DNA of 64,000 nucleotides from an uncultured Hormoscilla sp. Lineage in GTDB: Bacteria > Cyanobacteriota > Cyanobacteriia > Cyanobacteriales > Desertifilaceae. Under the pieces are notes generated by a model. The model was given only the letters and a program-made list of their open reading frames with translations, was not told the DNA's origin and made no database searches. The position numbers were made by a program, and so were the translations under genes. Below, piece by piece: positions 1-6,163 of the stretch (positions are counted from its first letter, which is position 1; every line of letters begins with the position of its first letter). The stretch is taken from contig OZ001293.3 of assembly GCA_963921275.4 (NCBI GenBank), positions 2,048,001-2,112,000 of the forward strand, written 5' to 3'.

Positions 1-663
1 AAAGGGAAACTGTCCGGGCATGTCCTCTCGTTCTTGCTGTACCAGCAATATCTGTTCCCATCGCTTGCTCTTGAGAGCATAACCCATTTCTACACATACA
101 TTCGGACTGGGTATCAGCTGCTGGCCCCTTTCCCGGGCCACCTGGGCGATCGCGGTCCCATCTGCCACAAACAGCAAACTCTTGCGGATCCGTCCCATCA
201 GTTTGCTTTTTAATCTAATGGGTGCGTTGCTGGGGCGATGGGATCCTTCCACCGCGATCGTCAGGCGCGATCGTCTATTAATATTGGAGACCACCCGATC
301 CAGTTCTTCCGAGATGGCTTCACTTGAGGTCGGGTACTCCGTCTGATAGCATAGGAATATTATCGGATCCAAATGGCCCATCACCTCTTGCTTCGCGAAA
401 TATATCTCGTGACTGGTCAGGTCTATATTGGAGATTGCGTACCCACCACTGCCTTCAATATAAAATTCTACGACATCTCCTTCCAGATAGCGCCCAAACC
501 ACTCTGAGTTTCTCACTTCTTCGCTATCTTCCAAGAAATCTGCTCGCAGAGCAGATTTTAGCAGACTATTTTTACTCAAGCGGATATCTGGAGGACGCTT
601 AATCAGCTCTCTTATCGGTTCGTACTCCTGAAGATACCATGCTTTCAGAGCAATTATCGCCAT
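1..663 (-). CDS. Conserved cyanobacterial hypothetical protein (runs off window start); C-terminal half has a TIR/nucleoside-deoxyribosyltransferase-like motif
   Basis: Absent from the ORF track because it has no stop in the window. Manual translation from ATG at 663: MAIIALKAWYLQEYEPIREL...SLLFVADGTAIA...IPSPNVCVEMGYALKSKRWEQILLVQ, open to position 1. The NVxxExGYA motif is typical of TIR/NDT-like folds. Confidence 0.75.
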   Translation of the reverse strand, partial: MAIIALKAWYLQEYEPIRELIKRPPDIRLSKNSLLKSALRADFLEDSEEVRNSEWFGRYLEGDVVEFYIEGSGGYAISNIDLTSHEIYFAKQEVMGHLDPIIFLCYQTEYPTSSEAISEELDRVVSNINRRSRLTIAVEGSHRPSNAPIRLKSKLMGRIRKSLLFVADGTAIAQVARERGQQLIPSPNVCVEMGYALKSKRWEQILLVQQEREDMPGQFPF

Positions 664-690
664 AATTCTTTTTCGCTGCTTCCCGTATTT

Positions 691-870
691 AAACCACAAC
701 AGCACCCGGTTCGCCCGACCGAGTGACTTCCTCCCTTGTTTGAGTCTATCTGGAGTTGAACTTATTCTACCATTTCTATCGCCCGTTTGGGCTATTGCGG
801 TAGTGTTCAAAGCTCCCAACTCTCTATATTGAGGAAGTTTCCGCCTTTTGCTTGGGTGCTGTTGTGGTTT
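691..870 (-). ncRNA. ssrS: 6S RNA-like rod-shaped RNA, copy 1 (most canonical)
   Basis: 180 nt bounded by a perfect 17-bp inverted repeat AAACCACAACAGCACCC/GGGTGCTGTTGTGGTTT. Nested pairings ACTTCCTC/GAGGAAGT, a central unpaired bubble, GGAG/CTCC, TTGAAC/GTTCAA and CTACC/GGTAG. Size and fold match cyanobacterial 6S RNA. Confidence 0.65.
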
Positions 871-1330
871 GACGAGACAGATCTAACTTAAACAGCTTTT
901 TTCCTCTTTTCTCTCAACGTGGACTTGGCTGCTTATCTGCCAGGGAAGCTAATGCTTCATGTTTCCACCTTAAACGCTTCTGGGTTCAGATGCCAACCCC
1001 TTGTAACAATTCTTTACATTTCCCGACCTTAAACACACAACAGCACCCGGTTCGCCCGACCGATTGACCTCCTCTCTACCGGTGTTTTTAGCTGGAGTTG
1101 CACTGATAACTCAGTTCCCTTGCTCCCACCTCTTTACTATGAGGAAGTTTCCGCCTTTTGCTTGGGTGCTGTTGTGGTTTGACGAGACAGATTTAACTTA
1201 AACAGCTTTTTTTCCTCTTTTCTCTCAACGTGGACTTGGCTGCTTATCTGCCAGGGAAGCTAATGCTTCATGTTTCTACCTTAAACGCTTCTGGGTTCGG
1301 ATGCCAACCCCTTGTAACAATTCTTTACAT
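829..1330. repeat. Near-identical ~190-bp direct repeat (829-1020 and 1139-1330, period 310 bp) covering the RNA 5' arm and upstream spacer
   Basis: Direct comparison of the two segments. A diverged third version at 1490-1645 keeps GAGACAGAT..TTAAACAGC, ATCTGCC.AGG.AAGCT and CTTTACATTT. Confidence 0.9.
1034..1180 (-). ncRNA. 6S RNA-like RNA, copy 2 (shorter apical domain)
   Basis: Same closing stem (CACAACAGCACCC/GGGTGCTGTTGTG) and first ~40 nt identical to copy 1; different central bubble and apical hairpin (CTGA-gtta-TCAG). Confidence 0.55.
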
Positions 1331-1346
1331 TTTTCCGATTGTAAAA

Positions 1347-1503
1347 CACAACAGCACCCGGTTTGCCGTGCCGAGTGCTTCCTCTCTAGTGCAATTATCT
1401 CTGGAGATTAACTGACCGACTCACTTTACAGCAGTCAGTTGCAGTTGTCGAGCTGCCCTACTCTACTTGAGGCCATCACTAGGCCCCGCTTGGGTGCTGT
1501 TGG
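1347..1503 (-). ncRNA. 6S RNA-like RNA, copy 3 (most diverged)
   Basis: Closing stem CAACAGCACCC/GGGTGCTGTTG and the GAGGAAG..CTCGG..AACCGGG 3' block are retained; it has its own apical hairpin AACTGACTG/CGGTCAGTT. Confidence 0.5.
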
Positions 1504-1663
1504 TAGAGACAGATTTTAAGTTAAACAGCCTTTGACATTAACGGTTCTACTGTTACATCTGCCCAGGAAGCTGAAACTGCTTCCTTTTCCCAGTATGGAC
1601 ACTCGATCGCTTGGGGAGCTAGAGATTAAACTAAACTTTACATTTGTTTGACTGACTTCACGA

Positions 1664-2053
1664 TTAGCAATAGGCTGTTACATCCTCCCCGCATTCATCC
1701 GCCAGATAGCACAGGGCCCGGAAGCGCAGGCCAACCACTTCGTTATAGAGGGGGTTGAGCTTGCACAGGGGCGGAACGTGAAACAGGGTGCGGCCAAAGA
1801 GTTTAATGTCGCGCTCAAAGGGACATTGGGTGGGAATGAACTGGCAGATATAATGGGCCAATTGGGGATTTCTCACTTCTATGCGATCGAGCCATTGCCG
1901 TAGGGGACGCAGCAGATCGAAGGAAGTCTGCTGTTGCCAGTGGGTGGGTGACAGGCTGTATGAAACCTGTTTGCGCAGCCATAACCAACTGGTAAGGGCA
2001 AGATTTTGCATGGTATAATGACAAACACTCATCTTTTTTTTCTTCGTCTCCAT
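1664..2053 (-). CDS. Mo-dependent nitrogenase C-terminal-domain family protein (not a nitrogenase)
   Basis: Motif IPTQCPFERDIKLFG...PPLCKLNPLY...LRFRALCYLADECGED. Confidence 0.85.
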   Translation of the reverse strand: METKKKKMSVCHYTMQNLALTSWLWLRKQVSYSLSPTHWQQQTSFDLLRPLRQWLDRIEVRNPQLAHYICQFIPTQCPFERDIKLFGRTLFHVPPLCKLNPLYNEVVGLRFRALCYLADECGEDVTAYC

Positions 2054-2438
2054 TAGGTGCTACTGAGGTAAGACCTGCTATCACATGTAGCAATTTTTTA
2101 CCTTATGCACCCTGAATGTTGGCTGAGTCACACCTCTTTGGTGAACTCATATTTATATTCTGGCTCGGTTAGCTCTGTTTTGAGATGAGAGATCTCACTG
2201 GATTTATGTGCGTGTAGTTCGTTATTATCGTGATGCAATTATGACGTAAGTATGATTTCCCTCACAGTCAAGAGTTCGACCTAAGACTGACTTTACGGCT
2301 TCCCAGGCGCGAAGCTTCGTAGTAAGCACGAAGAGTCTCCGCACGAAACTCAACCGGTGCATCTTATTCTTGGCAGAAGGATGAACGAGAAGCGAGAAAA
2401 TATGATAAAATCGAGCAGAGGTAAGAGAGGAGAAAAAC

Positions 2439-3911
2439 ATGACAGAAAAGAAAAAGGAACTGACAACCAGTTTCGGAATTCCGGTGAGTGACAACCAGAA
2501 TTCTCTGACAGCGGGAAGTCAAGGTCCGATCTTGATGCAAGACTTCCAGCTAATTGAGAAACTGGCTCATTTTAACCGCGAACGCATTCCGGAACGAGTA
2601 GTACATGCGAAGGGTGCGGGGGCCCATGGTTACTTTGAACTAACAGCAGATGTCACCCAATGGACAAAGGCAAAGTTCTTAGATAAGGTGGAAAAACGGA
2701 CGCCAGTGTTCCTGCGTTTCTCGACTGTGGGGGGAGAAAAAGGTTCGGCGGATACGGCCCGGGATCCGCGCTGGTTTGCGGTCAAGTTCTACACGGAGGC
2801 AGGAAATTATGATATCGTCGGGAATAATACGCCGACTTTTTTTATTCGCGACCCGCAGAAGTTCCCGGACTTGATTCACAGTCAAAAACGCAATCCTCAA
2901 ACCAATTGCAAGGATCCTAATGCGGTTTGGGACTTCTTTTCTCTCTCTCCAGAATCACTCCATCAGGTTACCATTTTGTATTCAGACCGGGGTACTCCTA
3001 AGTCCTATCGCCACATGAATGGCTATGGTAGCCATACTTTTAAGTGGATTAATGCTGAGGGGAAGGCGGTTTGGGTTAAGTATCATTTTAAGACTGACCA
3101 GTCCATTGCTAACTTTACTCGGGAAGAAGCAACCCAGATGGCAGGAGTTGATGCTGACTACGCTACGCGAGACCTGTTTGAGGCGATCGCCAATCAGAAC
3201 TACCCCAGTTGGACTGTGAAAGTGCAGATCATGCCTTTAGAAGATGCGGCGACTTACCGCTTCGATCCCTTCGACTTGACGAAGGTCTGGCCCCATAAGG
3301 ACTATCCGATGATTGTGATCGGGAACCTGGTGCTCGATCGCAACCCGGAAAATTACTTTGCGGAAGTAGAACAAGCAGCATTTTCTCCCTCTAACGTAGT
3401 GCCGGGAATCAGCTTTTCTCCAGATAAAATGCTGCAAGGGCGTTTGTTTGCCTATCCGGATGCTCATCGTTACCGTCTGGGTGCAAACTATGCTAACCTG
3501 CCAATCAACTGTCCCCATGCGACTAAGGCGATGAACTATCAGCGGGATGGGGCGATGCGCTTTGATGATAATGGCGGTGCTAGTGTTAACTACGAACCGA
3601 ATAGTTTTGGCGGTCCCACGGAATCACCGGAGTATAAAGAACCCGCTTTTGAGGTTTCGGAGATGGCCGATCGGACCGCATTTGAGCGCAGTGATGACGA
3701 CTTTGTCCAGGCGGGGGAACTTTATCGGATCCTGAGTGCAGAGGAGAAAGCGCGTCTGGTGGATAATATTGTCGATAGCATGAAACCTGTAAAGCGAGAG
3801 ATTCAGTTGCGGCAAATTCCCCATTTCTACAAAGCCGATCCAGATTATGGTACTCGTGTAGCAGAGGGTTTGGGTATTGAGATCAAAGAAGTGCTCAAAT
3901 CAATGAATTGA
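2439..3911 (+). CDS. katA: Monofunctional small-subunit heme catalase
   Basis: [15 protein letters not shown] (distal His), VGNN (Asn) and [14 protein letters not shown] (proximal Tyr); 490 aa. Confidence 0.93.
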
Positions 3912-4000
3912 TTCGCATCCCTCACCCTAAAGGGTGGGGCTACCCAAACGAAGCCCGCCTGCGCGGGCTTCAAGCCGCACTTTGTCAGGTGCCTAATAAC

Positions 4001-4357
4001 TTATAAATAGGTAACGTTTTTGTTTTTATCAATTTGTATATGTTTTAAACGCTGAAGTTCTGAGACTATTTTTTCCTTCTCTGAATCAGAAATACCGCCT
4101 TGAAACTGGAACATTGAATTTATTGAGTTTAACAGAGAGCGCATCTTACTCGCTTTTAGTTTTTTGAGCCTTTTAATAACATATTGAATTGTTTCCGCAC
4201 TATTTTTGTCAAAATGTTGTTGACTGTTTTCAAGCTGTTTTTGAGGATTTTGATTTTCTTCTTCCTTCCTGGCAAGCTGTATCAACAACTGTGCCAAACG
4301 CAACTTATCCCTATATCCGAGCTGCTCGCATAATTCAGCTATCCGATCGTAAGTCAT
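4001..4357 (-). CDS. Hypothetical protein, AT-rich
   Basis: 118-aa ORF with a GGAGGAG RBS upstream; family not recognised. Confidence 0.55.
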   Translation of the reverse strand: MTYDRIAELCEQLGYRDKLRLAQLLIQLARKEEENQNPQKQLENSQQHFDKNSAETIQYVIKRLKKLKASKMRSLLNSINSMFQFQGGISDSEKEKIVSELQRLKHIQIDKNKNVTYL

Positions 4358-4964
4358 GACATCTCCTCCATTGTTAACTTACTTAACTACGTTGCGGTGT
4401 CTCCTGGGAGACACCGCCTCAGGCTCGCATCTTCCGTAGGAGCACGTGTATTTTTTTGTAGCTTGTGGGCTGAGAGCCTTGCCTCGTCATAAATTTCAGC
4501 TTGTATGTTGCACCCCCCTGCTATTATACATGAAATTCAGCAGCTTGAGTTGGAAATTTCAGCAAAAATGAGATGCAGTCGTCAATCTTGAGCAAAAAAT
4601 TGTTTCATTCCGCTTCCTTACTCGCGTTGCTGGGCGTGACAGGACATATGTGCCACCGCTGGTTGGGGAGGCGAGAGGACCTCGGTTGTAAAACTGCTCC
4701 ATTGTTCATGGCCTTAGTTCTATCATGAGGGATATCCTGCCTGGTGGACATGAGGCGTGACAGCTACTCAAACCCTGATTTGGAGTCAGCAACAAAATGC
4801 CTCAAACCCTCATGATTGCGTTCTTGAGAACCCCAACTCCGAACTAGGGAACTCCGAACTGGTGAACGGGTGTAGTCAAAACCCGTTGATAAAAATATTG
4901 ATCCCCCAGCCCTCAGATTTTGACCACGGTGAACTCACGTTGGTGGGCGGTGCTGGATGCCATT

Positions 4965-5205
4965 TTAAATATGATTTGCCCCTAAGCAAATATGATTTGC
5001 TTCTGAGCATATATTATTTGTCCCTGAGCCCTGAGCATATATGATTTACCCCTGAACATATATGATTTTTTTCTGAGAATAATATATGATTTGCCTTTGA
5101 GCATATATGATTTGCCTCTGAGCATATATGATTTGCCCCTGAGCAAATATGATTTGTACATTTTAAATCATATTTGCCCCTGAGCAAATATGATTTGCGC
5201 CTGCA
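4965..5205. repeat. Degenerate tandem repeat, ~21-nt unit GCCCCTGAGCA(A/T)ATATGATTT
   Basis: About 10 imperfect units visible, with no spacers. Confidence 0.85.
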
Positions 5206-5362
5206 AATCTATGTAATGATGCGGAGTTTCCCTGGGATCCCCCGACTAGATGCTAGACTTCTCCAGAAGTGCCTCAACTCCTTCAGTACCCTGAAAAAAG
5301 TTCAATTGATGACCGCGAAACAAATGCCGGACGTGATAGCGAGTTGGTGTTGCGGGCAGTAT

Positions 5363-5551
5363 TTACCCTCGGTTAGATAGCAGTGACAGCAAACTTTCAG
5401 GTTTACCGTGATTAACTAACAGATATACTGCTTCCATGAAACTGGTTTTACCAATTTCGTTACTACCAACAATCAAGTTGACTCGCCCTAATCCTGTGAT
5501 GGTAAAATCTTTGAAGCAGCGGTAGTTTTCTATCGTAATATCTCGTAACAT
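5363..5551 (-). pseudogene. N-terminal fragment of an AAA/ABC-type ATPase
   Basis: ITIENYRCFKDF...VNLIVGSNEIGKTSFMEAV (Walker A-like), truncated at 62 aa. Confidence 0.75.
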
Positions 5552-6163
5552 TTCCCCGGTTCTCGTTCTTAGGTTCGTAGTAAGGACTTTAGTCCTTCTG
5601 CGGGTAGGTTGAGCACATTGCCAGTTCGACCCTTACTAGGATGGTCAAACAAATTGGGCAACAAGATATCTAAATAGTAGGACATAATTATTTAAATAAT
5701 TGTCAAATCAATAAGGGTGTGGTCAAAATTCGTTGTTACACGGCTGACGCCGCGCTGCGCGATCGGCCTCGCCGCCCGAACCCTGAAGGGTCCGGCTATA
5801 TGAACAAAGCCCGCCTGCGCGGGCTATATTACACGCATCACCAGATGCACCCATCAACTACTTGTGACCGCACCCAGTCAATAAGGCTAAGGGAGTTCCA
5901 AAAAATAAATTCCCCAATTTTATCGCTGTACCAACTGGTGCATCCAGACTACTGGATAATCTTGGAGGATTATTTACTTGGACTTCCCTATAACCCTTGC
6001 TGTGTGGTAATTTGAAGCTTTCGACTACAAACTACGAACCGCGTAGCGTTGCGAGGTACGAATTATCATGTGCTTAAGCCAGGTTAGGCTGGTAAAACTT
6101 CGATCGTCGAGGGTGAGAAAGCATTGCTCTGGACCGTTGTTCTTGATTTTGGCTGTTTACCCA

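Follow-up and report, generated by a model that had tools for sequence, protein, structure and literature searches.

Near the start of a 64,000-nucleotide stretch from an uncultured Hormoscilla sp. (contig OZ001293.3, positions 2,048,001 to 2,112,000; hereafter the window), the minus strand carries three tandem units, which almost certainly are three genes of the PmgR1/Ncr0700 family of small RNAs (sRNAs), located at the apparently ancestral site of the family and each equipped with its own sigma70-type promoter (Table 1). The array is the sole locus of its kind in the genome. A preliminary description, made from the sequence alone, had reported units at a spacing of ~310–340 bp, each closed by an inverted repeat around a structured core, and had read them as 6S-RNA-like genes. 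Its account of the layout was borne out: start-to-start distances are 341 and 311 bp for the 5' family of repeats and 310 and 328 bp for the 3' family, and the arms of the inverted repeat measure 17 bp in unit 1 (691–707/854–870), 13 bp in unit 2 (1036–1048/1164–1176) and 11 bp in unit 3. Between the 11-nt arms lie 146, 115 and 132 nt, rather than the ~90–130 nt of that description. Folding of the minus strand gave −75.4, −59.5 and −61.9 kcal/mol for units 1, 2 and 3 (z = −8.1, −5.0 and −2.9; 0, 0 and 2 of 200 shuffles folded equally well), that is, folds far better than those of shuffled sequences for units 1 and 2 and modestly better for unit 3. For the full unit 1 gene, z is −6.3.

The family assignment builds on published homologues. 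Ncr0700/DsiR1 (identical to PmgR1) and TU3047 are listed in the supplement of PMC6596454; compared by eye, our locus L266 matches the former and L267 the latter. R1, a covariance model of the 3' rod built with the window's relatives from 38 of 44 distinct extracted units, recovers L266 at 45.9 bits and L267 at 59.1 bits, and both loci have every conserved block in common with the window units. All three window units, whose scores are given in Table 1, belonged to the R1 training set. The published start of TU3047 coincides with the first base of the 5' hairpin, an A located 6 nt past the −10 hexamer, and mapped starts in two organisms agree with this register to within 1 nt; the register of the TU3047/Ncr0700 start also sets the predicted starts at 960, 1271 and 1585. 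The alternative suggestion of the preliminary description, an uncharacterised structured-RNA system, gives way to this homology.

PmgR1/Ncr0700/DsiR1 of Synechocystis sp. PCC 6803 and 6714 shares with the units the 5' hairpin, the two-helix 5' domain and its Shine-Dalgarno (SD)-like loop, as well as the closing stem, bubble, junction motifs and promoter-to-start spacing, at similar overall length. Unlike the single-copy Synechocystis gene, the window has three tandem copies with a shorter interdomain linker and different neighbours. An internal loop that we take to be loop-E-like occurs in 33 of 94 homologues and is altered in all three window units. The Synechocystis 6803 sequence as listed in the published supplement ends before the genomic closing stem; a copy cut by a transposon was considered and rejected, as the genomic locus has the full stem and the published probe primer ends within it. 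Where homologous loci were scanned, no Rfam 15 family matched Synechocystis PmgR1.

We traced the family with R1. Across the phylum, 44 of 151 genomes had a match: 40 of 43 from the order of the window, 4 of 10 from the other orders of its class and 0 of 98 from the remaining families. Matches were also present in 60 of 151 genomes of a class-wide draw and, for two families of the window's order, in 43 of 52 and 138 of 144 genomes; most Cyanobacteriales covered by the searches have PmgR1. With BLAST, 36 of 61 genomes gave matches at E ≤ 0.01, a few of these matches being short and weak. Genomes with R1 matches hold between one and eight, tandem or dispersed; multi-copy PmgR1 is common in cyanobacteria. 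Genus g125 had no R1 match in seven of seven near-complete genomes, although 23 of the 24 genera of its family have the RNA; families f44–f46, f57, f58 and f67 likewise had no match, which may reflect either loss or divergence. Outside cyanobacteria, pattern matches in named genomes (e.g. L143, L150, L159, L166 and L206) gave no model match, and of five pattern matches in viral contigs none was confirmed by the model.

In Trichodesmium erythraeum, ncr6410109 is reported as a top-20, northern-verified noncoding RNA of unknown function (PMC4143802, Table 1). R1 matches 6409654–6409813 and 6409847–6410003 of this genome (G371), just downstream of the published start, 6410109r; there, one promoter and 5' domain precede two 3' domains, whereas the window array repeats the whole gene. 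One promoter and 5' domain followed by at least two tandem 3' domains were seen at L259:3155–3610 (G371) and also at L252, L255, L257, L107 and L012, implying that the rod domain duplicates as a module. At L122:1501–2380, L126:1341–2512 and L131:448–1660, copy pairs are convergent rather than head-to-tail, and at the Synechocystis-type loci L102 and L117 the RNA lies divergent from an upstream open reading frame (ORF) that is presumably hoxE-like. The well-known seven-repeat Trichodesmium array (103–110 kb) was dismissed as a family member: R1 had no match there, nor were the motifs seen by eye in 601 bases. The NsiR1 array of heterocystous cyanobacteria, likewise an sRNA from tandem direct repeats, gives tandem sRNA arrays a precedent; as described in PMC6596454, it differs in being heterocyst-specific and located upstream of hetF, and no Rfam match links it to the window units.

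We derived a promoter profile from the 99 of 112 R1 matches with a usable 5' end. It comprises an extended −10 promoter and a conserved box near −55 to −40 (in unit 1, about −57 to −42). Units 1 and 2 fit a sigma70-type promoter with its start at the 5' hairpin; that of unit 3 is non-consensus. The strict box pattern is present in 48 of the 99 homologues, and a box occurs once upstream of each window unit. Taken by itself, the pattern is no more frequent in the window than expected by chance (four matches; 6 of 100 shuffles had as many). Its position fits the activating class of RpaB (HLR1) sites centred near −51, which makes RpaB a candidate regulator; its sequence matches the HLR1 consensus only partially, and RpaA is an alternative candidate.

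Upstream of the rod, the homologues share a 5-bp hairpin and a two-helix stem. The 3' strand of this stem is the conserved block that the preliminary description had correctly located upstream of each unit (in unit 1 it lies within the 5' domain) and had labelled a TAN3T promoter. That label is wrong, because the block pairs with a conserved strand 45–70 nt further upstream, inside the predicted transcript. The near-identical spacers, taken there as the reverse of neutral decay, are therefore nothing of the kind: they consist of the promoter and the 5' RNA domain. In 64 distinct homologues, 95.3% of the cells of the 5' domain are paired, with two-sided change in just 3 of 18 pairs and hence little covariation support. 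The SD-like loop pairs with the genome's own anti-SD at a mean of −7.2 kcal/mol, compared to −4.1 kcal/mol for shuffled loops (26 of 68 at p ≤ 0.05). No conserved small ORF was found on the RNA strand, where the longest frames of the three units are of 9, 24 and 14 codons; downstream of the SD-like motif, the spacing does not keep to one frame.

The three units are not 6S RNA genes. A search with the Rfam 6S model RF00013 (gathering threshold 46.4 bits), named in advance as decisive, returned no match at E ≤ 1 in positions 1–6000 of the window, and the only match in the genome at E ≤ 10 lies at another locus (88.9 bits). RF00013 matched 58 of 61 genomes—the window's own and its relatives—at E ≤ 1, 56 of them over the cut-off and essentially once each; PmgR1-family genes thus co-exist with a single canonical 6S RNA. 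The units had no match to any Rfam family at E ≤ 1, and twenty homologous loci had none at gathering score. With 6S/SsrS RNA (including cyanobacterial ssaA and B. subtilis 6S-1/6S-2) the family shares a ~150–185 nt rod with a closing stem, an asymmetric central bubble, a G-rich/C-rich junction into the apical arm, a −10-like region on the 3' bubble strand, a 5'-strand pyrimidine close to the closing arm, and high abundance. In contrast to 6S RNA, it has an extra ~90-nt 5' domain and a short, variable apical arm, and it carries a literal TAnnnT where the 3' strand of 6S RNA forms a hairpin.

The 3' domain is a real RNA structure: a covarying rod with closing stem, asymmetric bubble and apical arm. 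Pairing-preserving changes, which the preliminary description had proposed as a check, are abundant among homologues, with two-sided change in 26 of 38 pairs in a plain MAFFT alignment of 38 sequences (0 of 500 shuffles) and in 37 of 38 pairs across 107 distinct model-aligned rows, an alignment fitted to the model. G-U pairs outnumber C-A pairs by 183 to 32, which fixes the RNA strand. The bubble is of near-constant size among the 112 homologues: its 5' strand has 13–14 nt in 84 and its 3' strand 18–19 nt in 102, and the closing-arm strand has one length in 98, while the apical arm varies freely from 25 to 148 nt (median 48).

Three bases into the 3' bubble strand lies a hexamer with the profile T62 A85 n n A62/C29 T83 (in per cent), the pattern of a sigma70 −10 element. 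In a non-redundant set of 94 homologues (18 of the 112 dropped at 80% identity), nAnnnT was present at this offset in 69 and TAnnnT in 43, compared to at most 16 and 4, respectively, at the 11 other offsets and a shuffled maximum of 21. In 58 of the 94, the 5' strand has at its fourth position a U opposite an A that is the fourth-last base of the 3' strand; this +1-like A lies 5–6 bases downstream of the hexamer. Next to the closing arm there is less pairing than expected (z = −3.2 and −2.5). An apical helix extending into the bubble to the −12 position was considered and dropped, as it showed no covariation. As far as sequence can tell, the layout corresponds to that of 6S RNA and of an open complex at a promoter. 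Within the window, the hexamer of unit 2 (1090–1085) reads TAAAAA, having lost its last T, a change private to this genome since the orthologues in the related genomes G002 and G004 retain the T. Unit 3 lacks the SD-like loop motif, and its hexamer (1399–1394) reads GATAAT, with the first T lost.

On this basis we propose, at a probability of about 0.55, that the 3' domain of PmgR1 acts as a second, 6S-like RNA-polymerase decoy by virtue of its open-promoter geometry. Synthesis of the RNA would occur chiefly in the dark or in stationary phase, the pattern published for Synechocystis. The central bubble of the rod would imitate an open promoter, presenting a −10-like hexamer on the non-template-like strand to sigma region 2 and a U in the 5' strand as the +1 template, with the closing arm as the downstream duplex and only a short upstream arm. 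In the manner of 6S RNA, the RNA may thereby bind and hold RNA polymerase holoenzyme (containing SigA or a sigma factor of group 2), and it could serve as template for a short product RNA (pRNA) that brings about release; the conserved 5' domain would be a separate module for stability, processing or a second partner. We regard as evenly balanced a more specific version of the proposal, wherein PmgR1 is an unrecognised ‘−10-only’ open-promoter mimic, unrelated in sequence to 6S RNA, that holds a specific holoenzyme (possibly SigE, SigB or SigC) in the dark, its copy number of one to eight and its arm variants setting dose or specificity, and its SD-bearing 5' module providing a link to the ribosome or to RNase J/E turnover. 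The notion of a promoter-mimic RNA in the preliminary description hence survives, strengthened by the open-complex geometry and the −10-like hexamer of the 3' domain, with polymerase binding as the inferred step.

Several lines of published work bear on this proposal. Work by de Porcellinis from 2016 is said to have found PmgR1 necessary for photomixotrophic growth and glycogen control. Homologues in Synechocystis and Trichodesmium are reported with mapped starts and northern signals; Ncr0700 is described as peaking in the dark, in stationary phase and upon heat, and PmgR1 as the most abundant transcript of Synechocystis 6714 in darkness. In 6S RNA, the −10-like region is placed in the 3' bubble strand and the pRNA start in the 5' bubble strand, and B. 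subtilis 6S-1 cut down to the bubble and short arms is reported to still work, at ~10-fold lower affinity (PMC8876501). A further parallel is Ms1 RNA of actinobacteria, which is likewise 6S-shaped, outside the 6S family and described as binding RNA polymerase. Ms1 binds the core enzyme without sigma, whereas the conserved −10-like hexamer of the PmgR1 family points to a sigma contact; we set Ms1 apart from the units by its published description, the sequence comparison consisting of the empty Rfam scans.

A number of observations weigh against a decoy. The short apical arm, on which a −35-like region would have to be presented, is one, since E. coli 6S RNA is reported to need its distal apical arm for binding (B. 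subtilis 6S-1 can dispense with it). Nor is the hexamer a hallmark of 6S RNA, given that it appears in just 1 of 25 sequences parsed from 26 cyanobacterial 6S RNAs and that mutating the −10-like bases of E. coli 6S RNA is described as barely affecting binding. No model match links the two RNAs in either direction: R2, a model of the 26 cyanobacterial 6S RNAs (its RNAalifold structure is without the second closing-arm helix), gave at best 12.5 bits (E = 0.095), outside any unit, when run with filters off on 54 family loci, and R1 gave no 6S-length match on 22 6S loci (best 12.4 bits, E = 0.27). The bubble opens ~3–4 nt further upstream than that of a DNA open complex, and no covariation closes it there. 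The 5' domain is nearly invariant and more conserved than the 3' domain, which mimicry leaves unexplained. The hexamer recurred in a held-out set of 40 homologues (21 of 61 dropped as too similar), with nAnnnT in 26 and TAnnnT in 16 against a null mean of 4.3 and maximum of 11, but these were found with a model that includes the bubble columns; moreover, the common descent of the homologues makes the shuffle nulls exaggerate significance.

Among contigs from three public runs of one study, which possibly share their source with the window and whose kind is not on record, every one of the three cores is represented, but no contig reaches across the array. One metatranscriptome run yielded a 155-nt contig at 666–820 with seven differences, its other contigs lying outside the array, and thus provides no evidence of expression; transcription of the units is predicted from their promoters and homologues. 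Also weighing against a decoy are the Synechocystis Grad-seq data reported in PMC8136920: Ncr0700 peaks in fractions 6–7 (0.224 and 0.291; cluster 10), like the six mRNAs we compared it with, while 6S RNA, SigA and SigE peak in fractions 10–11 and RpoB in fraction 8; fractions 9–11 hold a share of 0.241 of Ncr0700, 0.123–0.209 of the six mRNAs and 0.568 of 6S RNA. In another published gradient, Ncr0700 spans fractions 5–12 with its peak at 8–9, similar to RNase P RNA. We conjecture that a large excess of the RNA over the enzyme, or binding under particular conditions, could reconcile these profiles with a decoy.

The Grad-seq bulk away from holoenzyme would suit a different mode of action, which we consider possible but rather doubtful, namely that PmgR1-family RNAs act post-transcriptionally. 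Their 5' domain with its SD-like loop might sequester an RNA-binding protein or 30S subunits, or the RNA might pair with mRNAs after processing by RNase E, the bubble hexamer being some other protein's site. The near-invariance of the 5' domain argues for such a role, as do the better-than-shuffled pairing of the loop with the anti-SD in the absence of a conserved ORF behind it and the reported processing of PmgR1 by RNase E (PMC8682795, PMC10939160). It leaves unexplained, however, the fixed bubble geometry, the register-specific TAnnnT and the +1-like U/A; the conserved sequence of the 3' domain, nearly all of it paired or 1–2 nt long, would make a poor seed, and the sources covered name no direct RNA targets. 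That the units are no RNA genes at all but a DNA-level element—a MITE-like inverted-repeat element or a recombination cassette—is very improbable: the preponderance of G-U over C-A pairs, the conserved promoter, the restriction to one locus in the genome and the reported starts and northern signals of the homologues all contradict it, even though terminal inverted repeats, tandem copies and a copy number and position that vary between genomes would be typical of such elements.

The preliminary description had proposed that the three copies are promoter mimics diversifying under selection, possibly tuned one by one to separate sigma factors or release conditions. We consider this unlikely in light of how the array has evolved. 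The cores had been called strongly different, which holds for the bubble and the apical arm; otherwise, units 1 and 2 are identical at 63 of 66 promoter, 86 of 87 5'-domain and 132 of 147 aligned ungapped 3'-domain positions. In the comparison of units 1 and 2 between the window and G004, copies cluster by genome at six sites, every one of them within the 5' part, and by orthology at 52, every one of them in the apical arm or past it. Within G004, the paralogues show 0 differences over 209 positions of the 5' part, as opposed to 22 over 59, plus 33 gap columns, in the arm. For this split, and with it the constant/variable pattern, the best account is gene conversion or unequal crossing-over acting on a functional gene, not a set of hypervariable cassettes. 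We infer that the array arose by tandem duplication and was reshuffled by conversion or unequal crossing-over, with promoters and 5' parts homogenised within the genome and an older apical arm persisting in unit 1. Tuning is also at variance with the near-identical promoters of units 1 and 2, which allow no separate regulation, with the privacy of the unit 2 hexamer change, and with the fate of the copies in relatives: in G001, which has at least four copies, the terminal one carries a unit-2-type core in place of the unit-1 core, G004 holds unit 2 twice in identical form, and in both genomes unit 3 is down to a 3' remnant. Birth and death of copies with a gain in dosage is the simplest reading; the extra copies most likely add dosage, and unit 3 looks like a degenerate, drifting and possibly decaying copy. 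Conversely, the three bubble hexamers differ, two to eight copies are kept in many cyanobacteria, and the apical arms of units 1 and 2, mutually very different, are each conserved between G000 and G004 (5 differences over 91 and 2 over 60 positions, respectively); the conservation of arm types across three genomes leaves some room for sub-functionalisation.

Rearranged versions of the array were observed as well. It is broken or rearranged in G002 (L006, L261/L263) and G003 (L260), and one G002 copy, which is missing its promoter and 5' hairpin, combines a 5' bubble of unit-1 type with an arm of unit-2 type.

The family being already known, the window contributes a new multi-copy locus of a known sRNA, whose array is explained by ordinary duplication and conversion. 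What is new is the 3' domain as it appears across 112 homologues: a covarying rod with a bubble of fixed size and a −10-like hexamer in one register. In literature covered mostly at the level of abstracts and in few subscription journals, we found no proposal of PmgR1 as 6S-like or polymerase-binding; the founding PmgR1 paper and the supplement of PMC12873609 lie outside this coverage and might already show the structure, multi-copy loci or a comparison with 6S RNA. Homologue searches have been published: PMC12873609 reports 34 PmgR1 matches within the regions it searched, and its structure screen recovered none of them. The comparison yields a mechanistic hypothesis for PmgR1 that is precise to the nucleotide, for an RNA with an existing mutant in the model strain. 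If true, cyanobacteria would run two polymerase-binding RNAs in parallel, PmgR1 would form a new class beside 6S and Ms1, and darkness would have a route to re-allocate sigma factors. The triplet itself matters less, as one of many multi-copy PmgR1 loci, yet it offers a useful natural set of arm variants.

Table 1. Features of the PmgR1-family array and its flanks in the window (promoters and transcript starts are predictions).
Feature	Position	Strand	Remarks
Unit 1, PmgR1-family sRNA gene	688..960	−	~273 nt; predicted start 960; R1 130.8 bits
Unit 1 promoter (predicted)	967..1017	−	−10 hexamer 972–967; −35-like 996–991; conserved upstream box 1017–1002
Unit 1 5' domain	874..960	−	5-bp hairpin, two-helix stem, A-rich loop with SD-like motif (~903–911)
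Unit 1 3' domain (rod)	691..870	−	closing stem 870–854 with 707–691
Unit 1 3' domain, 5' bubble strand	830–817	−	
Unit 1 3' domain, apical arm	816–752	−	
Unit 1 3' domain, 3' bubble strand	751–734	−	
Unit 1 −10-like hexamer	743..748	−	TAGACT, in 3' bubble strand; family register, offset 3
Unit 2, PmgR1-family gene	1030..1271	−	~243 nt; predicted start 1271; short apical arm; R1 133.2 bits
Unit 2 promoter (predicted)	1278..1328	−	−10 1283–1278; −35-like 1307–1302; box 1328–1313
Unit 3, divergent PmgR1-family copy	1342..1585	−	~245 nt; predicted start 1585; R1 65.9 bits
Unit 3 promoter (predicted)	1592..1641	−	non-consensus −10 CATACT 1597–1592; no TTG at −35; good box 1641–1626
Downstream gene	1..660	−	220+ aa, incomplete at the window edge; no match in Pfam or NCBIfam; conserved neighbour
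Upstream gene	1664..2053	−	Mo-nitro_C domain (PF06967)

With respect to the flanks, at 16 of 70 loci, spread over several families, the ORF picked as downstream neighbour is a homologue of the gene downstream of the array, which suggests that the window locus is the family's ancestral site; the homologue is also present at the window locus and in G003 and G004, where the script had picked a frame on the opposite strand. Its protein is a possible read-through partner of the RNA. The upstream gene is the upstream ORF at 5 of the 70 loci.

A monofunctional catalase gene adjoins the array (2439–3911, plus strand; 490 aa, PF00199 and PF06628); such catalases are less usual in cyanobacteria than catalase-peroxidases. 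Rfam CRISPR-DR28 matches at 3947–3970 and 5803–5826 (plus strand; 31.2 and 36.6 bits) are isolated palindromes that form no array; their central 20-mer has a genomic count of 11, and the palindrome is probably a dispersed REP- or MITE-like repeat. Between them, at 4969–5203, lies a degenerate 21-bp tandem repeat of ~8.5 copies that yields spurious repetitive ORFs.

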